A DNA stretch of 64,000 nt from contig JAUXTO010000013.1 in the NCBI GenBank assembly GCA_030679255.1, forward strand, positions 84,383 through 148,382, in the 5' to 3' direction. Shown here piece by piece: positions 5,632-45,607 of the stretch (position 1 is its first letter; each line of letters begins with the position of its first letter). The notes below the pieces were generated by a model that did no database searches, was not told the origin of the DNA, and saw only the letters and a list, made by a program, of their open reading frames with translations. Source of the stretch: Candidatus Gottesmanbacteria bacterium. GTDB taxonomy: Bacteria > Patescibacteriota > Microgenomatia > UBA10105 > UBA927. The position numbers and the translations under genes are program-made.

Positions 5632-8058
5632 ATGAAAAGACTATTACTCCTCTACAAAAACCCTTTCTGTATTCTTGGGTTTATTACCATAATATTTTTC
5701 TGGCAAATATTTTTCAAAGGATATGTTCCTTTTCCCGGTGATTTACTGCTTTCGGAATATAATCCCTGGCGCCAGAGCTCCTACTTCGGATACGCTCCTG
5801 GAGCAGTACCGAATAAAGCTCAATATTTTGACACAATCCGGGAATTCTACCCATGGTTGGACTTCACCGTTGGCGAAATAAAAAAAGGAAACATGCCACT
5901 TTGGAATCCTTATAACTTCTCCGGACAACCGCATATAGCCAATTTCCTTACCGCAGTTTTCTACCCTCTGAATTTCATTTATTTTACGATCGGGACCATC
6001 CGTGGATACTCTCTCATGATTGTGCTTGCCCCATTCCTAACGTCCATATTTATGTATTTGTATGCCAAAAAAATCGGAATCTCTCCAATCGGATCTTTCT
6101 TTTCTGCATTGATACTCGCGTACTCTTCGTATATGGTTGATTGGCTGGAATTCGGGGTGGTAGGACATACTCTTGCCTGGTTTCCGCTGGCGCTCTACGC
6201 GATAGAACATTTACGGACCGGTCATAGCACGAAACACTCTCTTATCTTGACGTTTGCGTTGACCGCGTCATTATTTGCCGGATATCCGATGGATTTTATC
6301 TTCTATTTCAGTTTTGTTTTACTCTATCTTGTTTATATTGCCTTTATAGATTCCAAAATCAAGAAACAGCCGTTTACCTTGCCTTTTACCCGTGTCGCAC
6401 CATGCGTAGCATTCTCTTTACTCATCGGGAGCATACAGCTATTCCCCGCTATAGCGTACTACCTCAAGTCAGCCCGGACATCTGTACCCTACGATTTTTT
6501 GATAAATAATATGCTCGTACAACCATATCAGCTGATTATGACCGTGATACCTGATTATTTCGGTAATCCCGTCACAAAAAACTATTGGCTTACGACATCG
6601 TATGTAAGCCTGACGTTATCGTTCGGACTCGCGCCATTACTCTTTGCGTCCATTTTTATCTTCAACCTGCATAAAAAGGAGCGTGTCATGTATCATCGGG
6701 AACATCTGTTTATTGCCGCACTCCTCACCATCTATCTCCTCATCGTAAGAACGCCGCTCACCGAACTATTGTATAGAATGAATATTCCGCTCTTTTCTAC
6801 AAGCTCACCGACCCATCTGTTAACGATCGCCATCTTCATCTGGAGCATTTTAGCTGGACGGGGGTTGGATCTCTATCTGAAAAACAAAGAAAAGCTATAC
6901 ATGCTTATCCCCACCATTCTCGCATTTTGCCTCGCGTGGGCAGGGTTACTCTTTGTGCCGTATGCATATCAAACAGTAGCACTACGTAACAGCGTCTATT
7001 CTACCGGAATTTTTATGACACTATTGGTGTTATTTACTCTCGGATCGATAAAAATGAACGTAAAAAAATACATAATTATACTTATCATCCTCGTGACCAT
7101 CATTGAACGGTTTGTCGCATTTGGAAAATTCAATCCGTTTGTACCCAAAGCGTACGTGTACCCGCAATCAGAAATTTTGACCCACCTTCAATCCATATCC
7201 GGCATCGATAGATTTTATGGATACGGGACAGCAAAGATTGAATCCAATATCAATACGCGGTACAGTCTCCATTCAACAGATGGTTTTGGTGCGATAAACT
7301 ATGCTTTCTATAACGGTTTTATCCGCGCATCCCAAGACGGAAAAATCGTAAAAACGTTTACCCATATAAATCGTAGTGTCGCGGAAATTGCCACGGGGTA
7401 TGGGGCAGAGGATCTTCCGCATAATCTCTACAGGTTACGGATGATGGACGCTCTCGGTGTGAAATATATCCTTGACCGCGTCGAAAATCCAAAAGACGAC
7501 GCTACATTTCCGCGCGACCGGTTCGCGCGGATCTGGGACAATACCGACGGATGGGCAATCTATAAAAATATGTATGCCGCTCCGAGATACTTTTTAACAG
7601 ATAAAATACAATATTACAGTACTGATGCAGAATTCGAAAATATATTTTTTGATCCGAGCTTTAATCCGAGAGACACGGTAGTGTTAGAAAAAAAAGCAGA
7701 ACCACTCATTCACGTTCTTCCGGCAAAGGAAAAAAACGTTGAGCTTGTACGGTATGAACCCAACACCATACAATTCCGTACCAAATCCGATACAGCGCAA
7801 ATTCTCTATCTTTCAGATACGTACGATAAAGGATGGAAATCATTTATTGACGGCAAACAGACCGGAATGTTGAAAGCAAATTACGCATTACGGGCGATAA
7901 ATATCCCGGCCGGAACGCACACTGTTGTCATGAACTACGCACCGGACGAGTTCACATACGGCATAATCGTATCACTCATAGGATTCATACTTTTCACAAT
8001 TTTTTTAACGGTACGGGGCGGCCAAAACGTTAAAGCGCGCCACTCCCGCCTGTGTTGA
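5632..8058 (+). CDS. YfhO-family membrane protein (GT-C-like glycosyltransferase acting on lipid-linked sugars)
   Basis: 808 aa with the hallmark PLWNPYNFSGQPHIANFLTAVFYPLNFIYF segment of the YfhO family and many transmembrane segments. Confidence 0.7.
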   Translation: MKRLLLLYKNPFCILGFITIIFFWQIFFKGYVPFPGDLLLSEYNPWRQSSYFGYAPGAVPNKAQYFDTIREFYPWLDFTVGEIKKGNMPLWNPYNFSGQPHIANFLTAVFYPLNFIYFTIGTIRGYSLMIVLAPFLTSIFMYLYAKKIGISPIGSFFSALILAYSSYMVDWLEFGVVGHTLAWFPLALYAIEHLRTGHSTKHSLILTFALTASLFAGYPMDFIFYFSFVLLYLVYIAFIDSKIKKQPFTLPFTRVAPCVAFSLLIGSIQLFPAIAYYLKSARTSVPYDFLINNMLVQPYQLIMTVIPDYFGNPVTKNYWLTTSYVSLTLSFGLAPLLFASIFIFNLHKKERVMYHREHLFIAALLTIYLLIVRTPLTELLYRMNIPLFSTSSPTHLLTIAIFIWSILAGRGLDLYLKNKEKLYMLIPTILAFCLAWAGLLFVPYAYQTVALRNSVYSTGIFMTLLVLFTLGSIKMNVKKYIIILIILVTIIERFVAFGKFNPFVPKAYVYPQSEILTHLQSISGIDRFYGYGTAKIESNINTRYSLHSTDGFGAINYAFYNGFIRASQDGKIVKTFTHINRSVAEIATGYGAEDLPHNLYRLRMMDALGVKYILDRVENPKDDATFPRDRFARIWDNTDGWAIYKNMYAAPRYFLTDKIQYYSTDAEFENIFFDPSFNPRDTVVLEKKAEPLIHVLPAKEKNVELVRYEPNTIQFRTKSDTAQILYLSDTYDKGWKSFIDGKQTGMLKANYALRAINIPAGTHTVVMNYAPDEFTYGIIVSLIGFILFTIFLTVRGGQNVKARHSRLC

Positions 8059-11844: not shown

Positions 11845-13544
11845 TGTAAATAAGGCACATTCCCGGCTTCGTTCCAATTCTTTTTAGATATTTCAGCGCT
11901 TATGACATACGCCGTCTCCCCCGTCGGATAGGGAATAGCAACCAACTCCACGGCTCCAGGGAGAACTTCCGTTGGAGATCCTACGTATAACACGCGCGGG
12001 TCGAGCGGAACTCCGGTGTTCATATATGTATGAAACTCATATTTATCAAATGCATTTCTCTCTTCATCAAATTTCCCGGATTTGGTTCCCCCGGAAGCGA
12101 GATATTTCGCCGGATCGTACTTCAGATAATAAAGAAAGAATATGTATGGCTGATCCAGGGACGTTGACACAATAATCTTATCAAATTTATCCTGCATGAG
12201 CTTAACCGCGCCTACAGCCTGCTCATGACCGTATTGCCATTCAGAGGCATACTCAACGGGCATATGAATATAGTATTGATGCAGATAAAATAATCCGGAG
12301 AATACTATAATTGCAACTCCGATACCCACTGATGGTATTCGAAACGTTGCTTTCATTGATTCTAACTTCCTATACAGCTCAAACAATCCAATTGCAACAA
12401 ATATCTGTAGTGTGGGTAAAAAAACCAATGTCCGGACTGGATGAGGCAACATCCTAGTAGGAGAGGCAGCAATGGGAGCTGCAAAAAACCATAAAAATAA
12501 TATATATTTACTTTTTCCTTTTTTATTGGCCACGGCAAAAAGCCCATAGAGCAAAACGGGAAGCTCCCATAGATACATAAGACCGAACCCGGGTACATGG
12601 TATTTTCCCTGAACTATTTCTGAAAAAAAGAAATTTGGATCAAAATGAGATAAATAACCCTTTAGAAGGGTTGGAATATCTGCAAACCGCCTGTTATGAA
12701 CAATGGCAGGAAATGGTATCCCCAACGTCTCATCTGTCTGTCTCCAAGATATTGTTCGATTCAGTGGGCCCACATCTCCTAAAGCACTCACTCCACGGGC
12801 TCTCACAAGTCCTTCCGGCGACAGAGACAACTTTAATAGAGGCGTACATAATAGAATAAATACAATTATACCGGCAATAAAATATTTTTTTTGCTGAATA
12901 ATTTCCCGGTAATTAATAACGAAATATCCAACTATAAATATCGGTATAAATACTCGAGAGCTATGATACGACCATACCGATAACGCGAGAATAAAAAATG
13001 CCGGAATATAAAAAATGTTTTTTTTCAATGCTTTTAACAGCAACATGATACCAAAAACAGTAAAAAATACTGCTATATTTGCTTCATAAGCAGAACGGGA
13101 AAATTGCAGATGCCAAGGGGAAATAGCGAGAAGAAAACTTGCAATGAGTCCAATAGATGCGCTTGCAAATAAACTTTCTACCAATACGTACGTAAGATAT
13201 ACGGTTACCGTGCCCAGAACCGCTGATGGTAACCGCACGCTAAAATCGTTTAATCCAAACATTGCGATGCTCGGTACGGTCAGGTAGATATACACGGGCA
13301 TTTTAAAATCATCAAACGACTGAAAGAGAAGTGGAAATTTTTTCCCATATTCATCTTTTCCGGTTTTCAAAATTGAATAAGCATTGTATCCGATTGCCAC
13401 CTCATCCGCATTGAGGCTCGTCGGAACAATACCTAACTTATAGAATCTCAACGTCGCCGCAATAAACAGAATGATCGTTACGGCAATAATTTTTTTATAG
13501 ACTCCCATATTTGTATTATATTTTCTTTTTCCTCGCAATAACAA
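11841..13544 (-). CDS. GT-C membrane glycosyltransferase, GT39/PMT_2 (ArnT-like) family paralog
   Basis: LNADEVAIGYNAYSILKTGKDEYGKKFPLLFQSFDDFKMPVYIYLTVPSIAMFGLNDFSVRLPSAV is highly similar to the genes at 527 and 2164. The start is probably the internal Met at about 13508 (MGVYKKIIAV), which avoids overlap with the methyltransferase. Confidence 0.7.
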   Translation of the reverse strand: MLLRGKRKYNTNMGVYKKIIAVTIILFIAATLRFYKLGIVPTSLNADEVAIGYNAYSILKTGKDEYGKKFPLLFQSFDDFKMPVYIYLTVPSIAMFGLNDFSVRLPSAVLGTVTVYLTYVLVESLFASASIGLIASFLLAISPWHLQFSRSAYEANIAVFFTVFGIMLLLKALKKNIFYIPAFFILALSVWSYHSSRVFIPIFIVGYFVINYREIIQQKKYFIAGIIVFILLCTPLLKLSLSPEGLVRARGVSALGDVGPLNRTISWRQTDETLGIPFPAIVHNRRFADIPTLLKGYLSHFDPNFFFSEIVQGKYHVPGFGLMYLWELPVLLYGLFAVANKKGKSKYILFLWFFAAPIAASPTRMLPHPVRTLVFLPTLQIFVAIGLFELYRKLESMKATFRIPSVGIGVAIIVFSGLFYLHQYYIHMPVEYASEWQYGHEQAVGAVKLMQDKFDKIIVSTSLDQPYIFFLYYLKYDPAKYLASGGTKSGKFDEERNAFDKYEFHTYMNTGVPLDPRVLYVGSPTEVLPGAVELVAIPYPTGETAYVISAEISKKNWNEAGNVPYLH

Positions 13545-22516: not shown

Positions 22517-23275
22517 CTATCTGTGTTTTGACTGTAATTCCCACAATTTTGCGAACGTAATAAATATGCTAAACGCTTGATAAATGCTTTCGATTAAGCC
22601 GACCACTCCTGCGTGCCATCCGCCTTTTTTGATAAACGAATCCAAAAATCCGGTCAGCATGACACGCAAGAATCTCCACCACACGACGGGTGGATGACCA
22701 GCATCCAACCGAAGTTGCGCCTCAATACGTGACCACTCATTCGTTTTAGCAACCATCTCCTCGAGCGTCCGGTGGGTATCGTGGACTACTGCCCCATTTA
22801 GTCGACCCACAGCTCCGTTCACACGAGCCGTTTCATGAAGCGTTCCGTACCACTCTACGAGCGCATCTTTACGCATGAACCGCAATAGATATTCATCATT
22901 GGGCCACTGCGCACCCAAATAATAATTCTTCCTTCGTACTTCATATCCGTTGATGAGTGATGAGGAACGAGTGATGTGGTCTTGAATCTCTTTGCGTAGT
23001 TCTTCGGAAATTATCTCATCGGCATCGATATACAAAAGCCACTCACCATGGGCTTTTTCTTTTCCTATATTACGAAGCCCGGCAAAGTCACGGATATCTC
23101 CGGCCGAGACAACAATCGATCCCTTTTTATTCGCTAACTCCCGTGTGGTATCTGTGGATCCGCTGTCTACAACGATAACCTCATCCGCCCACGCAAGTGA
23201 TGACAAGCATTTTTCGATCCTTGCTTCTTCATTTCTGGCGATGACTATTGCTGATATTTTCATGCCTTTCCCCAT
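22517..23275 (-). CDS. glycosyltransferase family 2
   Basis: ISAIVIARNEE...VIVVDSGSTDTT...YIDADE are GT2 (DxD) motifs. The start is probably MKISAIV at about 23263. Confidence 0.7.
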   Translation of the reverse strand: MGKGMKISAIVIARNEEARIEKCLSSLAWADEVIVVDSGSTDTTRELANKKGSIVVSAGDIRDFAGLRNIGKEKAHGEWLLYIDADEIISEELRKEIQDHITRSSSLINGYEVRRKNYYLGAQWPNDEYLLRFMRKDALVEWYGTLHETARVNGAVGRLNGAVVHDTHRTLEEMVAKTNEWSRIEAQLRLDAGHPPVVWWRFLRVMLTGFLDSFIKKGGWHAGVVGLIESIYQAFSIFITFAKLWELQSKHR

Positions 23276-24198
23276 CTTCCTGTAAATGCATCGACCACTG
23301 CTTTTCGATGCGTTGACGGTCCCGTCACGAAAAACCGTAGAGCTTCACGAGCAAGTGCAAATTTCGTCCGTATTGATGCATAGCGCATACCCATCAGCAG
23401 TCTGTTCCTAGTCATATAGTATTGATGGGTCTCACTTCCTACGCCGCTTGAACCCGCGTTCTTGTGCCAAACAACTGACTGCGGCGCGTACAGGAGTTTA
23501 TAGCCGGCGCGTTTGGCACGCAAACAATAATCCAGATCCTCTAGGTACGCGAAAAATTTCTCGTCAAATAGTCCGATTTTTTCAAACACCTCTTTCCGCA
23601 CCATCATGGAACAACCGGTGACAAATAGCGTCTCCTCTGTCTTATCATATTGTCCCTTATCCACTTCATCAACCCCACGGTGTGACGCGTACATATTCTC
23701 CCAGTCAATAAAACCTCCGGCGTACCAAATCACTTTTCCCAATTCCGTCTCTTGGTATCTTTCTTTATGATATTCCCGCCCCGACGCAAAATAAATTTTT
23801 GATCCGGCTATACCAACACGGCTATCGCGGCACGCATCAATAAGTGTTGTTAAAGCGTTTTTATCCACGACGGTATCGTTATTGAGAAGCCATACGAAGT
23901 CAGCTCCCTGTTCCCGCGCTCTCCGGATTCCGGCGTTATTGCCTCCCGAAAACCCAAGATTTCGACCGGTCTCAATTACTTCCACATCGGGAAAATTATT
24001 TCTGATAGCCTCCACAGAACCATCGGTAGACCCATTATCGACAACAATAACTTTGACTTTTTCAGCCAGAGGCTGATCCACCTTTGGCGGAGACTTTTGA
24101 CTTTTGACTTGCCGAAGCGAAGCGAGGCATTCAAGTGTATCTTTTTTACCATTCCAGTTAACCAGGATAATAGCGACGTATGATTTGATCATGATCAA
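23260..24198 (-). CDS. glycosyltransferase family 2 (rhamnosyl/WbbL-like) carrying an in-frame partial copy of the heptamer repeat
   Basis: VAIILVNWNGKKDTLECLASLRQ-[VKSQKSPPKVDQPLAEKVK]-VIVVDNGSTDGS...NLGFSGGNNAGI. The bracketed stretch is about 12 aa longer than the usual spacing in GT2 enzymes. It is encoded by TTTTGAC heptamer repeats at 24094-24110. Confidence 0.65.
   Translation of the reverse strand: MIMIKSYVAIILVNWNGKKDTLECLASLRQVKSQKSPPKVDQPLAEKVKVIVVDNGSTDGSVEAIRNNFPDVEVIETGRNLGFSGGNNAGIRRAREQGADFVWLLNNDTVVDKNALTTLIDACRDSRVGIAGSKIYFASGREYHKERYQETELGKVIWYAGGFIDWENMYASHRGVDEVDKGQYDKTEETLFVTGCSMMVRKEVFEKIGLFDEKFFAYLEDLDYCLRAKRAGYKLLYAPQSVVWHKNAGSSGVGSETHQYYMTRNRLLMGMRYASIRTKFALAREALRFFVTGPSTHRKAVVDAFTGRWGKA
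24082..24128. repeat. partial copy A of the heptamer repeat (heptamer arm only)
   Basis: CCTTTGGCGGAGACTTTTGACTTTTGACTTGCCGAAGCGAAGCGAGGC. It shares the CTTTTGACTTTTGACTT arm but lacks the stem-loop. It lies in-frame inside the GT2 gene at 23260-24198. Confidence 0.45.
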
Positions 24199-34538: not shown

Positions 34539-36170
34539 CTATAAGTGTATCAGTTTATGAATGGTGACAAATGATGTCTTCCAGGTGCCGGATATTGTGG
34601 CACTCCCGAATCCGGCAATTTCCCATAACGGGTGACCGAGCGGTTTGCAATCTGGCTCCTCACAAATCACAATCAACTGGTCGGTCACAGTTTTTCGCTC
34701 CGGATCTGCAAACTCCGGCTTGATCGTAACCGGAGGATTTCCCCAAATATCAAAAAAATATCGGTATACATGATCAGAATTACCTTGAGTGATCAGGGCA
34801 AAATTAAATGGCTTCTGACCGGTTTTATCAATTGCAACTTGTGCAATGCCGCGGGCTTGAGCCAGTTGATTATTCGGGGCAAATTGGAACGGCTGACCCT
34901 GCCAATTCCACCATAATAATAAAGCCGTCACGCCCACAGAAATTGCCATTCCGATGACATGAATTTGTTTGAGACGATAGAGAATAATACCGGTTACCAA
35001 AAACGGCAGGGTAAACCAAATGCCGAAGTAATAATCGTAAATTGCCCGTTTATAAAATCCAAATAAGACGGCTACGACAAAGCCCCAAAGCAGGAGAAGC
35101 AACGATGACCGTCGCCATCGGGCCGTATTGTTGATGGGATTGCAACCTATAACTAACAGGCCAATTCCAACCGTGAGAATGCCCACTATTCCCCAATGCC
35201 ACAACCCCTGCTGCCAAGACGGAATATCCGACCATATTTCCGGCTGCGGAAACCGGAGCACGAGTCTTCCGACTAACCGATAAAGAATGTCCTGGATAAT
35301 AATCCGGTATTTTTCTGGAGCGAGCCCTGTGTCGTTTCCCGCAAGAACAAATTGTATAATGGATTGTGTATTCGGAAATCCATGACGCAGTTCAAACAGG
35401 AGAAACGGCCCGAAACCCACCAGAAAACCCATCATACCAAGAATTCCCGTTTTGATCCGTTCCCGTACTTTGGTATACACGAGAACCCAAATGGCCGCAA
35501 CCGGAAAAAGAAATAAAAACAAGTAGTGAAGCTGCAAGCCTATTCCCATACATATCCCGGCACCAACTATATTCCTCAATCTTCCGTTTTCGGCAAATCT
35601 CCACAGAAGAAAAATCATCAGTAATGAAAAAAACGGCACGATATTGGGATTCCATGATGAACGGGAGTATGCGATGACCACCGGCGAAAGCGCATAGAGC
35701 GCGCTTGCCACGATTCCCACCCATGAACCAAACATATCCCGACCGCTCCGGTAGAGAAGATAGACGGTTGCGACACCAAATAACGCAACCATCACAGCAG
35801 GTCCCGTGGGGTCGAGTCTCCATGCCCAAAGAAAGGGCAGCATAAAATAATAATAGATTGGCCCCAAGAAAAATCCTCCCACGGATGCGGTAGGCCCGAG
35901 AAGCGTCCATTTATGATCAACGATCATCTGTTTGACGACCAGTGCGTCACGTCCTTCATCGCCCAAAAACGTCATATAGCCGGATATATTGTAAAGGCGG
36001 AGGTATGCTGCAACGAAAAGAATGACTACTATCAACAACTCAGACCAAGGAACTTTCCAACGTTTTGACTTTTGACCTTTGACTTTCCCGCCTGCAACGC
36101 TTTGCTTAGCATTGCGGGCAGGTGACTTTATTTTTTCCATATGACTTTTGAATACATTGTGTAATTCCAA
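34539..36170 (-). CDS. GT-C membrane glycosyltransferase (ArnT/PMT_2-like) with the repeat element in its 5' region
   Basis: LGDEGRDALVVKQM acidic loop motif followed by multiple transmembrane segments. The N-terminal residues KSPARNAKQSVAGGKVKGQKSKR are encoded by the 67-nt repeat at 36063-36129. An alternative TTG start downstream of the repeat (LLIVVILF) is possible. Confidence 0.6.
   Translation of the reverse strand: MELHNVFKSHMEKIKSPARNAKQSVAGGKVKGQKSKRWKVPWSELLIVVILFVAAYLRLYNISGYMTFLGDEGRDALVVKQMIVDHKWTLLGPTASVGGFFLGPIYYYFMLPFLWAWRLDPTGPAVMVALFGVATVYLLYRSGRDMFGSWVGIVASALYALSPVVIAYSRSSWNPNIVPFFSLLMIFLLWRFAENGRLRNIVGAGICMGIGLQLHYLFLFLFPVAAIWVLVYTKVRERIKTGILGMMGFLVGFGPFLLFELRHGFPNTQSIIQFVLAGNDTGLAPEKYRIIIQDILYRLVGRLVLRFPQPEIWSDIPSWQQGLWHWGIVGILTVGIGLLVIGCNPINNTARWRRSSLLLLLWGFVVAVLFGFYKRAIYDYYFGIWFTLPFLVTGIILYRLKQIHVIGMAISVGVTALLLWWNWQGQPFQFAPNNQLAQARGIAQVAIDKTGQKPFNFALITQGNSDHVYRYFFDIWGNPPVTIKPEFADPERKTVTDQLIVICEEPDCKPLGHPLWEIAGFGSATISGTWKTSFVTIHKLIHL
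36063..36129. repeat. 67-nt heptamer/palindromic repeat element, copy B
   Basis: TTTTGACTTTTGACCTTTGACTTTCCCGCCTGCAACGCTTTGCTTAGCATTGCGGGCAGGTGACTTT: TTTTGAC heptamers, an imperfect stem-loop (CCCGCCTGC...GCGGGCAGG) and a GTGACTTT terminus. It begins inside the stop codon of the upstream GT2-GtrA gene and encodes the N-terminal segment of the next GT-C gene. Confidence 0.7.
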
Positions 36171-43839: not shown

Positions 43840-44748
43840 TCAAGAAGAGTATCGATCATCTTCATAGATTGGCACAACGGTTTGTCCTACGAATAAATTA
43901 TTGATGGGAACTCCAAGAAGAACTCCAAGTGTATTGGCAAGAGCAACACCCACGCGAAGGCCGGTATAGGAACCCGGACCTGTATTGACGCGTATCGATG
44001 TAATATCGCCAAGGACGTGGTGTGACGTATCTAAAAGTTTCACAATCAAGGGAAGTGCCTCCTGAGCTTTACCCACACGCATATCGCGCGCTTTGAGCGT
44101 TTGATGGCCGTGCGCATCGATGAAGCTCACGGCTATGACGTCCGAGCGTGATGTGTCAATAGTAAGGGTGAGCGGCTGTTTCAACAGTACGACTCCCTGA
44201 CGAATAATCCTAATGGTTCCGGTGGAACAATCTACGACGGTTGACGCGTTCCCGATAGAACATACCCCAGGTACGACATAATCCACGAGCTTGATGAGCT
44301 CCAGATCCAAATCTTCATAGCAGTAGGGAGTAGGAGACCCATGAAAATTGGCTGATGGCCCGAGGATCGGCACACCCACCCCTCGGATAAGCTCCAAGGC
44401 GGTCTCGTGATTGGGCATACGTAAACCAATATTTTTTCCGCTACCACGGATAGGGGAGTACACTAAATTTTCTTTACACCCAGCGATAATAGTAAGCGCA
44501 CCGGGCCAATACGTTTTCATCAGATGTCGTACAATTTCTGACGGATCGAGATAGTAGGCGAGAGCCATAGCCTTGGATGCAACCAGAACCGGGGTCGCCT
44601 GTGTACGCGGGCGTTTACGGAGCTTAAACAGTCTGTCTACCGCTTTCACATCATCCATCCGGCACCCTATGCCGAAAGCTGTATCCGTCGGATACATGAT
44701 GATACCGCCCTCCTTTAAAACCTGAATCGCTTGCTTGATACTTTCCAT
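43840..44748 (-). CDS. fusion of L-threonylcarbamoyladenylate synthase TsaC (YrdC domain) with an N-terminal-domain-only TsaB (YeaZ) module
   Basis: N-terminal 185 aa: MYPTDTAFGIG...LGPSANFHG...STVVDCSTGTIRIIRQG is the YrdC/Sua5 signature. C-terminal 115 aa: LTLTIDTSRSDVIAVSFI...NTGPGSYTGLRVGVALANTLGVLLGVP is the TsaB/YeaZ N-domain signature. Confidence 0.6.
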   Translation of the reverse strand: MESIKQAIQVLKEGGIIMYPTDTAFGIGCRMDDVKAVDRLFKLRKRPRTQATPVLVASKAMALAYYLDPSEIVRHLMKTYWPGALTIIAGCKENLVYSPIRGSGKNIGLRMPNHETALELIRGVGVPILGPSANFHGSPTPYCYEDLDLELIKLVDYVVPGVCSIGNASTVVDCSTGTIRIIRQGVVLLKQPLTLTIDTSRSDVIAVSFIDAHGHQTLKARDMRVGKAQEALPLIVKLLDTSHHVLGDITSIRVNTGPGSYTGLRVGVALANTLGVLLGVPINNLFVGQTVVPIYEDDRYSS

Positions 44749-44753
44749 AGTTA

Positions 44754-45272
44754 TTAGATGACTCGCTCCATCGAAATTTTATGCGAATCGTTTTCCAATA
44801 CCTCAAATCGTATATCAACCCTTCTTTTTGGAAGTAATCCACCCAATGTATCAGCCCATTCGATAAGTACGATCGAATCCGAATCTCTCAGCATTTCCGG
44901 GATTCCCAACTCAACAAGCTCTTTTTCGTCACCAATACGGTACAAATCGATATGATATAAAAATCCTGATTGTTTTACCAGTTGATAACGTCGTACAATA
45001 TAAAAAGTCGGGGAGAGCAGGCGAGAGGTAATTCCTAATGCTTTTCCAAATCCCTGAACAAACGTCGTCTTCCCACTGCCCAGTTCCCCATATAAACAAA
45101 CAGTCAATGCTCCCCGATCTTGTTCACTTTTGACTTTTGACTTTCCCGCCTGCAACGCTTGATGCGTAGCATTTGCGGGCAGGTGACTTTTGACTATATG
45201 AATCCCCAACTCTTGGCCAATGCGCGCAGTTTCTTTGGGCTCCGTGGTAATAAATGGGTAAGTGAAATCCAT
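44754..45272 (-). CDS. tsaE: tRNA threonylcarbamoyladenosine biosynthesis protein TsaE with a 23-aa in-frame insertion
   Basis: LYGELGSGKTTFVQGFGKALG P-loop and YHIDLYRI...LIEWAD C-terminus. The insert KSHLPANATHQALQAGKSKVKSEQ sits between helix alpha-1 (ETARIGQELGIHI) and strand beta-2 (ALTVCLYG). Confidence 0.7.
   Translation of the reverse strand: MDFTYPFITTEPKETARIGQELGIHIVKSHLPANATHQALQAGKSKVKSEQDRGALTVCLYGELGSGKTTFVQGFGKALGITSRLLSPTFYIVRRYQLVKQSGFLYHIDLYRIGDEKELVELGIPEMLRDSDSIVLIEWADTLGGLLPKRRVDIRFEVLENDSHKISMERVI
45127..45195. repeat. 69-nt heptamer/palindromic repeat element, copy C
   Basis: CTTTTGACTTTTGACTTTCCCGCCTGCAACGCTTGATGCGTAGCATTTGCGGGCAGGTGACTTTTGAC is about 85% identical to copy B, and the loop region differs. 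It lies in-frame inside tsaE and ends at the VanZ-like gene stop codon. Confidence 0.7.
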
Positions 45273-45607
45273 GCAATGCTTGCTCCTATGGCGTCAATTA
45301 TAACATCCCGAAGCCTCCCCTCCCGTGTCGGAACGAACAGTTGGTGTATTTCATCCGTAACAGCATAGATGAGTGTCAAAAAAAATGCGACCGCAAGTAA
45401 ATTGATTCCGATGGAAGCACGTAGAGTATTTTTTAATGCTCGGAAGTACAAAACAAACAAAATGGAGTACTCGATCACATGGAGCGTTTTAAAAAATAGG
45501 AAATTGATGAGAGGCTCCTGGGCAACCTGAACGCTTGACCTGCCAGATAAGAAAAAAATCACTCCCATCCAGGCCACAACCGGAAGCCAATATCGGACAA
45601 ACTTCAT
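45194..45607 (-). CDS. VanZ-like family membrane protein
   Basis: 137 aa, four transmembrane segments, TDEIHQLFVPTREGRLRDVIIDAIG VanZ motif. The 3' end overlaps the tsaE start by about 77 nt in another frame. Confidence 0.5.
   Translation of the reverse strand: MKFVRYWLPVVAWMGVIFFLSGRSSVQVAQEPLINFLFFKTLHVIEYSILFVLYFRALKNTLRASIGINLLAVAFFLTLIYAVTDEIHQLFVPTREGRLRDVIIDAIGASIAWISLTHLLPRSPKKLRALAKSWGFI

Follow-up and report, generated by a model that had tools for sequence, protein, structure and literature searches.

To our knowledge, mobile elements of ~36 nt are almost unknown, and the SDR repeats of Nostoc, whose mechanism is unsolved, are the only comparable report. SDR1-8 of Nostoc punctiforme and its relatives (Elhai et al., 2008) are reportedly hairpins of 21–27 nt with compensatory changes, often situated in tandem heptamers, nested within themselves and not known to be accompanied by an enzyme. 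The GC clusters of yeast mitochondrial DNA (mtDNA) are short GC-rich mobile palindromes, sometimes inserted in frame (var1) and with short target duplications. Here we describe a hairpin element of 36 nt (12 codons), found at two sites, A and B, in a 64-kb stretch of DNA (the window) from a metagenome-assembled genome (MAG) of Candidatus Gottesmanbacteria, together with a different palindrome at a third site, C. The host genes at all three sites lie on the minus strand. Our results indicate that the 36-mer is probably a very small, non-autonomous, selfish palindromic DNA element that spreads within genomes and between phyla. It is real, widespread and apparently undescribed, and looks like one of the smallest mobile elements known.

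Comparison with described palindromic elements

The 36-mer resembles the Nostoc SDRs, as reported, in being a tiny hairpin with a stem kept by compensatory changes (46/69 variants, 38 stems). Both are embedded in tandem heptamers and nested in themselves, occur as several unrelated families in one context, and have no known enzyme. Size (36 nt) and hosts (Patescibacteria, the Planctomycetes-Verrucomicrobia-Chlamydiae (PVC) group and others) set the 36-mer apart, in a comparison made by description only. Moreover, unlike the SDRs it is frequent in frame in essential genes and is tied to GIY-YIG/tRNA cassettes. A later paper that refers to the SDR work (PMC5861425) considered HIP1-rich cyanobacterial genomes, of which those beyond the Nostocaceae had no SDR.

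Rickettsia palindromic elements (RPE; Ogata et al., 2000) measure ~100–150 bp and are given in PMC10969869 as ten families known from Rickettsia only, each with one conserved peptide. In line with RPE, the 36-mer is a palindrome inserted in frame in unrelated housekeeping genes, where it is translated at positions compatible with the protein fold. It differs from them, again by description, in its size (36 nt), its use of four frames, its cross-phylum hosts and its heptamer arrays.

Repetitive extragenic palindromic (REP) sequences and their paired form, REPINs, are extragenic, species-specific, imperfect GC-rich palindromes of 20–40 nt with GTAG at one end, found around the gene for the REP-associated tyrosine transposase (RAYT; PMC3116915, PMC3733652). 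The 36-mer shares with REP the size class of an imperfect 20–40-nt palindrome, conserved mismatches, many copies and a hairpin that is probably active as a single strand. In contrast to REP, ~40% of the listed copies are intragenic (46/115), and the sequence is common across phyla. A GTAG tetranucleotide, in (G)TAGCA, is conserved here too, but lies within the hairpin, just 5' of the 3' arm, and not at one end of the palindrome as GTAG or CGTC does in REP. No RAYT-like neighbour was present among the open reading frames (ORFs) within 400 nt of 123 listed copies, a survey that did not extend to whole genomes.

[quoted passage not shown] Terminal inverted repeats, a short flanking direct repeat (clear in 12–19/122 copies) and the non-autonomous state recall DDE-type MITEs, whereas a length of 36 bp that is nearly all inverted repeat does not. 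A parent IS or transposase did not adjoin any listed copy (ORFs ≤400 nt). With the yeast mtDNA GC clusters, the 36-mer has in common that short GC-rich palindromes are inserted in frame in an AT-rich genome; those clusters are organellar, of unrelated sequence and without heptamer arrays.

Hence, the 36-mer is neither an SDR nor an RPE by size, sequence and host range (sequences compared by description), and neither a REP/RAYT element nor a MITE by location, tag position, size and lack of a parent. In its behaviour it appears to match the Nostoc SDRs, as reported, and the in-frame insertion of RPE. A first-pass annotation of the window, made from its letters alone, had not recognised a described family, and this stands. 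Rfam 15 at gathering scores gave no match in the whole window, and around copy A, with E up to 10, only chance-level matches (E >4). The searched literature contained no description of the element, and sequence matches in it were primer coincidences only.

The 36-mer in the window

Copy A (36063-36129) and copy B (45121-45194) each consist of a hairpin set in phase within an array of TTTTGAC heptamers. The arms and spacer read CCCGCCTGCAA-N14/17-TTGCGGGCAGG, and the general layout is (TTTTGAC)n TTT, hairpin, TGAC (TTTTGAC)m, with heptamers on both sides and their phase kept across the hairpin. Such an in-phase array is equivalent to a 7-bp direct repeat, TGACTTT, on each side plus extra tandem units. 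On the plus strand, copy A reads TTTTGAC TTTTGAC CTTTGAC TTT, CCCGCCTGCAACGCTTTGCTTAGCATTGCGGGCAGG, TGAC TTT, and copy B reads TGTTCAC TTTTGAC TTTTGAC TTT, CCCGCCTGCAACGCTTGATGCGTAGCATTTGCGGGCAGG, TGAC TTTTGAC. The two copies align over ~67–69 nt with few substitutions and two small indels. They encode PARNAKQSVAGG (A) and LPANATHQALQAG (B), that is, two different frames of the same strand. Their parts are as follows:

36087..36122, minus strand: hairpin core of copy A, 36 nt, with exact arm match; coding strand CCTGCCCGCAATGCTAAGCAAAGCGTTGCAGGCGGG, translated PARNAKQSVAGG
36063..36086, minus strand: heptamers of copy A on the coding-sense 3' side (plus-strand TTTTGAC TTTTGAC CTTTGAC TTT), encoding KVKGQKSK; the array spans 36063-36083
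36123..36129, minus strand: flanking heptamer TGACTTT of copy A, a 7-bp direct repeat with 36080-36086
45145..45183, minus strand: hairpin core of copy B, 39 nt, with exact arm match; translated LPANATHQALQAG within TsaE
45121..45144, minus strand: heptamers of copy B on the coding-sense 3' side (plus-strand TGTTCAC TTTTGAC TTTTGAC TTT), encoding KSKVKSEQ
45184..45194, minus strand: heptamers of copy B on the coding-sense 5' side (plus-strand TGAC TTTTGAC)

Two exact matches to the arm pair CCCGCCTGCAA...TTGCGGGCAGG are present in the window (36087-36122 and 45145-45183), where 0.00 were expected; this bears out the two full copies with an imperfect stem-loop that the first-pass annotation had reported. 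The 14-mer TTTTGACTTTTGAC occurs exactly at 24095, 36063 and 45128 only. With ≤2 mismatches it has 6 matches against 1.0 expected, a number reached in 0 of 100 shuffled sequences. A covariance model built from the family (R1) matched just A and B in the 64 kb and revealed no further copies. It separated the strands clearly, with 62.2 bits on the minus and 27.4 bits on the plus strand for copy A, and 46.5 bits on the minus strand for copy B.

The flanking peptides are rich in Lys and Ser and of low complexity, which is what one would see in an ordinary linker that resembles a repeat by chance, or in an assembly artefact. This explanation is already refuted, and we give it practically no weight: the arm pair is not expected by chance, orthologues exist that lack the segment, the nucleotide sequence is conserved across four reading frames, and the copies come from independent assemblies of many studies.

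Orthologues without the hairpin

The three sites lie in the following genes:

34539..36140, minus strand: GT-C / family 39 glycosyltransferase gene (Pfam PMT_2), from the conserved MEKI start; host of copy A
44754..45272, minus strand: tsaE (Pfam TsaE, E = 5e-32, residues 38-161 only), 172 aa; host of copy B
23260..24192, minus strand: GT2 glycosyltransferase gene (Pfam Glycos_transf_2); host of site C; its protein matches P0241 (Candidatus Gottesmanbacteria) at 100%

Pfam and, for GT-C, also the starts of orthologues agree on the placement inside minus-strand GT-C, tsaE and GT2 genes that had been noted before. The first-pass annotation had proposed that orthologues be compared, and insert-free alleles were found for all three genes. 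Judged by these alignments, A, B and C are all insertions.

The TsaE protein is 172 aa long here versus 148 aa in most orthologues, with 24 extra residues in the alignment. The insert is located between the N-terminal helix and the P-loop strand, which are directly joined in most homologues. In an AlphaFold model of the window protein (mean predicted local distance difference test (pLDDT) 83.7, predicted template modelling score (pTM) 0.80), residues 32-51, the insert, were the sole stretch with pLDDT <50, forming a loop between helix 12-29 and strand 56-61. In a relative with an 86% identical protein (L120), the same five-heptamer array is present, but its hairpin has moved on by one unit and contains another hairpin in its loop. 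In L122 (66% identical), these heptamers surround a palindrome of a different kind.

Copy A lies at codons 6-24 of its GT-C/PMT_2 gene, of which the MEKI/MEEV start is conserved among orthologues. The empty allele reads MEKINKSTLL..., while heptamer-only alleles have one unit (L144) or four AAAGTCA units without a hairpin (L145; MEKIKSKVKSQKSKV), and another palindrome sits at this site in P0126. Compared with the L144 state, the allele of the window is longer by 36 + 21 nt, which makes 19 codons. At the GT2 site, orthologues are empty (285 aa), heptamer-only (RQVKSQKSKVKS) or carry one of three modules.

The contact of both full copies with an upstream stop codon, which had been listed as a feature, turned out to be incidental. 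At A, the heptamer 36123..36129 overlaps with the TAA (36128-36130) that ends the upstream GT2/GtrA gene. The string ATGGAAAAAATAAAGTCA, which contains this TAA, is conserved both where orthologues have the hairpin and where they lack it, and therefore the contact is a by-product of a conserved gene overlap. At B, the TAG that closes an overlapping VanZ-like ORF (45194-45196) touches the outermost heptamer. This ORF (45194-45607) shares 79 nt (45194-45272), read in another frame, with the conserved N-terminus of tsaE, and the insert of copy B may have altered its end point.

Copies in genes are translated

Our scan of contigs, with one genome per species and the 22 arm bases as query, yielded at least 119 loci, so that the arms of this main set are fixed by the search pattern. 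Of 115 listed copies, 46 were inside long ORFs (67% for random windows), 28 upstream of or at the 5' end of a long ORF, and 35 in short-ORF or intergenic DNA; about 40–45% of the listed copies thus fall within long ORFs. Length was a multiple of three (3n) in 49/52 listed copies inside ORFs versus 39/63 elsewhere (Fisher p = 4e-5). Seen the other way, 49/88 of the copies of 3n length were inside long ORFs versus 3/27 of the others. In-silico deletion of the non-3n copies reopened an ORF in just 2/27. The 3n constraint on coding copies, and the failure of deletion to restore ORFs, imply that the copies are translated and not spliced out.

The 36-mer is open in four of six frames. Among 55 coding copies, 33 used the frame PARNATHSVAGG, 7 LPAMLRIALQAG, 7 PPATLCVALRAG and 5 PACNAMRSIAGR. 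The PARNATHSVAGG frame, used by 60% of coding copies, is hydrophilic; copy A uses this favoured frame and copy B the second. Presumably, purifying selection acts on the encoded peptide. Among the matches listed, the mRNA strand was the reverse complement of the search-pattern strand in 37/46 coding copies, whereas intergenic copies occurred in both orientations (19 vs 16). Selection may also disfavour the orientation in which the hairpin on the mRNA would be followed by a T-rich tract.

Copies occur in the middle of the genes for topoisomerase I (TopA), arginyl-tRNA synthetase (ArgRS), glutamate dehydrogenase, a Mur ligase and GlnE. Inserts lie in loops or between Pfam domains, as in TopA, glutamate dehydrogenase and MurE-like proteins, and in the loop of the TsaE model. 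In-gene copies are translated and tolerated rather than removed: they are kept only if they preserve the frame, they favour a hydrophilic frame and one orientation, and they are found in loops and inter-domain linkers. The earlier suggestion of a REP/MITE-like 'coding insertion' that tolerates translation thus gains support, both from the empty orthologues of all three genes and from the wide search, in which coding copies proved to be frame-selected.

An alternative explanation might be that the insert is taken out of the transcript or the protein, in the manner of an intron or intein. Introns are abundant in Patescibacteria, and group I introns in their tRNA genes have been described (PMC13011429); the hairpin interrupts tRNA-like sequence in the GIY-YIG cassettes discussed below. 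Yet, the 3n selection is specific to coding copies, deletion of non-3n copies does not restore ORFs apart from the 2/27, and frame and orientation are biased towards a benign peptide. Furthermore, the 12 aa have no intein motifs, 36 nt are too short for a self-splicing intron, and what the hairpin interrupts in the cassettes is a duplicated 5' piece located upstream of a tRNA gene that is intact. Removal is therefore largely refuted and extremely unlikely.

The hairpin and a possible regulatory role

On the coding strand, the folded copies have an outer stem of 11 bp, in which one C·A mismatch is conserved, and an inner stem (A, -23.9 kcal/mol, z = -2.8; B, -20.4 kcal/mol). Among the matches listed, core length was 36 nt (range 32–45 nt). 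A direct stem search compared with shuffled sequences showed that the interior extends the stem beside the 3' arm by at least 4 bp in 46/69 distinct variants, against ~13% of shuffles, and the variants had 38 different inner-stem sequences. Within the hairpin, a conserved (G)TAGCA beside the 3' arm stays unpaired. Variants of 39 nt contain three short covarying segments (Y...Y'...Y), with which two alternative triloop hairpins would be possible. Covariation of the arms is uninformative, as the arm-variant copies that R1 found elsewhere had mostly single mismatches; in the main set, the search pattern had fixed the arms. The maintenance of the inner stem by compensatory changes shows that the single-stranded hairpin, as DNA or RNA, matters to the element.

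A hairpin of this kind might also serve the host at gene junctions as a cis-regulatory structure, such as a terminator, a stabiliser of the mRNA or a hairpin for translational control, recruited for its ability to fold and repetitive only incidentally. On both strands, the 36-mer does outperform shuffled sequence in folding (z = -1.9 to -2.9), and its inner stem covaries. In addition, copies are enriched upstream of and at the 5' ends of genes and in intergenic DNA, stand at a constant distance from GIY-YIG start codons and have T-rich flanks on the search-pattern strand. However, 40–45% of the listed copies are deep in ORFs of unrelated housekeeping genes, in inter-domain linkers, and the intergenic copies show both orientations (19 vs 16). 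Terminator and promoter scans at A and B were negative: a terminator was flagged on neither strand, and AAAGTCA is what comes after the hairpin on the coding strand. The stop-codon contact at A is conserved without the hairpin, self-nesting and tandem arrays have no regulatory logic, and Rfam families do not match. We therefore regard a regulatory structure as unlikely. The first-pass annotation had offered a gene-junction RNA structure as its alternative, which finds no support in view of the mid-gene copies, the absence of a flagged terminator and a gene overlap that is independent of the hairpin.

Distribution across phyla

According to the record titles of the matches listed, ~65 hosts are Patescibacteria (also known as the candidate phyla radiation, CPR), spread over many classes, while Verrucomicrobia, Lentisphaerae or Kiritimatiellia account for 33. 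The commonest core, CCCGCCTGCAACGCTATGCGTAGCATTGCGGGCAGG, was identical in 19 CPR and 14 PVC loci among these matches. The loci with this identical core had a median host GC of 0.41 (CPR) and 0.58 (PVC), with a range of 31–62% GC, and flanks were unrelated between genomes. Each genome holds several copies of the hairpin. This cross-phylum spread was missed by the first-pass annotation, as were the nature of site C and the independent variation of the heptamer arrays; the observation itself is confirmed.

A metagenome scan for the window heptamer plus an arm gave 20 loci, with a hairpin in 15 (3 only degraded). These provided 12 further distinct copies with TTTTGAC flanks, mostly from groundwater, after L125 (the contig of L120) and L139 (a duplicate of L132) had been set aside. 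Five of the metagenome copies are read in frame as ...KSQKS-PARNATQSVAGG-KVKS... or a close variant, in genes that Pfam identifies as glutamate dehydrogenase, ArgRS, topoisomerase I, a UvrD-type helicase and a ROK kinase. The UvrD-type helicase (L140) also contains an intein (Pfam Intein_splicing) at residues 231-577, with the 36-mer insert at 676-688.

Nearly invariant palindromic arms across phyla, irrespective of host GC, and several copies per genome are also what a binding or uptake site for a conserved protein would show, as in parS or DNA uptake sequences. Against this, the copies are insertions that are polymorphic between close relatives, and they are nested and arranged in tandem without spacers. 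The C·A mismatch, the unpaired TAGCA and the covarying inner stem are less in keeping with an operator in duplex DNA than with a hairpin formed by a single strand, and no partner protein is known. A binding site is accordingly very unlikely.

Carriage by phages or plasmids was considered as the cause of the cross-phylum spread and dropped. Plasmid and phage collections gave no match, and the arm pattern occurred in 1 of 2.9 million viral contigs. This contig (L146; IMGVR_UViG_3300049984_000018) has three copies within 9 kb, at 524-559, 1619-1654 and 6525-6560, and may be a true phage with a CPR or PVC host or else a chromosomal fragment that was misclassified.

Site C and other palindromic modules

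The third site had been taken for a partial copy of the same repeat. Our results differ: site C (24051-24108) has a 29-nt double palindrome, CAGCCAGAGGCTGATCCACCTTTGGCGGA, between heptamers, which is different from the 36-mer.

24063..24091, minus strand: core of site C, two small hairpins CAGCCAGAGGCTGATCCACCTTTGGCGGA, giving PPKVDQPLAE to the GT2 protein
24051..24062, minus strand: heptamer flank CTTTGAC TTTTT
24092..24108, minus strand: heptamer flank GAC TTTTGAC TTTTGAC, encoding VKSQKS

This second module, CAGCCNGAGGCTGGTCCGCCTTNGGCGGA (29 nt), was found with ≤5 substitutions in L023, L024, L079, L094, L096 and L103, and twice in L127. Its hosts include several CPR classes, among them Nomurabacteria and Portnoybacteria, a Kiritimatiellaeota MAG and others. 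In the groundwater contig L127, both copies lie between TTTTGAC-type units, and the same contig carries the 36-mer with the same heptamer flanks. Since the same 29-mer is dispersed and shares the heptamer context, site C is a full copy of a second module family.

At least three further palindromic modules occur at the same heptamer sites in relatives. Their peptides are SREAGSRSAGQ (P0246, P0247, P0250, P0251, P0299 and L128), SFGKAQDDPERSRMGQ (P0283 and L122/P0003) and NPSARLRMTLSEVEW (P0126). Another hairpin, CCCGCCCGCAGCGATGCAGCAGCTTCGGGCAGGG, is nested in the loop of the 36-mer.

Heptamer arrays and signs of mobility

Hairpins nested within hairpins were found in L007, L039, L037, L072, L062 and L076, and head-to-tail arrays without spacer in L041 and L064. 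A nested composite of 69 nt is common to a TsaE gene (L125) and a TopA gene (L138). The hairpin of L120 stands one heptamer away from its place in the window, while the array stays at five units. In L041, the region ~986-2444 of a UvrA-like gene holds several spacer-less 36-mers, read as (PARNATHNVAGG)n in a run interrupted by masked N; this is either a tolerated in-frame tandem expansion or an assembly problem.

The 7-mers on either side of the hairpin agree at 6–7 of 7 positions in 12/122 listed copies, against 0.58 expected from permuted flanks, and the excess is present at k = 7 only. When the flanks are joined, a period of 7 appears in 7 listed copies versus 1/2399 control windows, with genome-specific units such as CTTACTC, CTTCTAA, GGAATTT, AATTTCG and ATCGCGR. 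Copies that lie in heptamer arrays are A and B of the window and L016, L047, L049, L089, L115 and L116. At the GT2 site orthologous to C, the array consists of TCACTCG x4 in L147 (10076-10103) and of AAAGTTA x4–5 in L148 (~1220-1255). Many GT2 orthologues have 7-aa-periodic peptides at this site; arrays persist while their unit changes. In most orthologues, heptamer arrays are present at these same permissive positions, with differing units.

Variable arrays near the start of glycosyltransferase genes bring to mind contingency loci: the arrays would be the functional part, slipped-strand mispairing of the 7-nt unit in the 5' coding region would turn surface glycosyltransferases on or off, and the hairpin would be a passenger. 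A and C are indeed near the start of such genes in a large glycosyltransferase cluster, the unit length is not a multiple of three, unit number differs between orthologues, and a fourth array, (TTGGTCA)3 at 1780-1800, lies in another GT-C gene. Even so, we consider phase variation very improbable: the arrays have only 2–5 units, the frame is kept in every allele examined, and the same arrays occur in the essential genes tsaE, topA and argS, where switching off would be lethal.

We favour the selfish palindromic element, which could work as follows. In this Gottesmanbacteria lineage, the element resides within lineage-specific heptamer arrays (AAAGTCA on the coding strand), flanked by 7-bp direct repeats. 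Insertion would duplicate 7 bp of the target, and loss would proceed by deletion between the direct repeats. Deletion and slippage may then build and reshape the heptamer arrays and leave heptamer-only 'footprint' alleles. Several unrelated palindromic modules may share the heptamers as landing pads.

Several observations weigh against this explanation. A clear 7-bp direct repeat is present in just ~10–16% of the listed copies (12–19/122), and orthologous sites exist with heptamer arrays but no hairpin, with a unit that differs by lineage. The three sites of the window genome share one heptamer unit. A simple target-duplication model explains neither the lineage-varying units nor the one unit at three sites. 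Slippage homogenises one array and not arrays at separate loci, so that either the modules carry heptamers along or insertion specificity shifts by lineage. Listed copies are enriched just upstream of or at the 5' end of genes (24% vs 12% for random windows) and in short-ORF or intergenic DNA (30% vs 9%), and the near-identical arms across phyla could reflect a conserved host function. Another 17 listed matches are third-party annotation (TPA) assemblies labelled Gammaproteobacteria or Bdellovibrionales, labels that are unverified. The GIY-YIG gene described in the next section is absent from the 64-kb window and from the 33 PVC loci, and hence its link with the hairpin may be CPR-specific or a case of hitch-hiking.

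Nevertheless, the hairpin in heptamers, the self-nesting and the several modules in Patescibacteria and PVC suggest a general, unrecognised way of moving DNA. In the proteins of CPR, the element explains many lineage-specific insertions as well as linkers rich in Lys and Ser. It can confuse gene calling and the alignment of orthologues, and it offers a marker for recent genome dynamics in unculturable organisms.

GIY-YIG genes at tRNA cassettes

All ORFs within 400 nt of 123 copies were clustered, and the sole recurrent neighbour family comprised GIY-YIG proteins of ~80 aa that consist of the catalytic domain only. In these cassettes, a 5' piece of a tRNA (a) is followed by the hairpin, a piece b, the GIY-YIG ORF and an intact tRNA (a + b + rest). 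Standard cassettes occur in L015, L021, L055, L068, L073, L078, L090 and L100. The hairpin ends 18–24 nt (40 nt in L015) before the FYTYVL motif and may have either orientation, and the tRNA position that it interrupts varies between cassettes. L105 has the standard layout with a variant hairpin. In L019, the hairpin lies ~175 nt before the motif and the GIY-YIG gene between tRNA genes, a different arrangement. Of 15 GIY-YIG genes in ~1 Mb of sampled loci, 10 are of the cassette kind.

The cassette looks like one that integrates into tRNA genes and restores them. An initial placement of the hairpin inside a tRNA D-loop (L015, L117) was rejected: ARAGORN finds no tRNA there, and the sequence is the duplicated 5' piece of the downstream intact tRNA gene. 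In L073, two identical units of 297 nt stand in tandem.

The tie between the GIY-YIG gene and the hairpin is an association only, which makes the nuclease a candidate mover; it might equally be regulated by the hairpin or simply land beside it. With tRNA-linked cassettes that bear the hairpin ~19 nt before FYTYVL, the ~80-aa domain-only nuclease would be the one to consider, and the cassettes offer a concrete and testable candidate enzyme. A bolder and rather doubtful proposal is that the 36-mer and its sister modules are the non-autonomous partners of an unrecognised transposition system. The cassette nucleases would run this system by recognising the extruded hairpin and making a 7-bp staggered cut at a heptamer target that varies by lineage. 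If true, this would be the smallest mobile DNA with an identified enzyme, and a major, phylum-crossing source of insertions in Patescibacteria proteins.

Other features of the window

The window is a large glycosyltransferase cluster, and a tRNA scan of it found none. Two families proposed by a repeat finder, D1 and D2, are conserved coding segments of paralogous glycosyltransferases, unrelated to the hairpin (D2 is the VVDNGS region of GT2 genes). They are located at 345-421, 1995-2071 and 13333-13409, and also at 23149, 24021, 25614, 34389 and 37099.

The fourth heptamer array, on the minus strand, is part of a GT-C-like ORF (527-2167), encodes PLVIGHWS and has no adjoining palindrome. Its unit TTGGTCA is also that of the cyanobacterial STRR2 repeat, which may be coincidence.

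The gene after tsaE (43840-44748) has a Sua5/YciO/YrdC (TsaC-type) domain fused to a short TsaD/TsaB-like segment, as judged from PF01300 and PF00814 (residues 229-282). The genes for N6-threonylcarbamoyladenosine (t6A) synthesis are thus clustered and partly fused.

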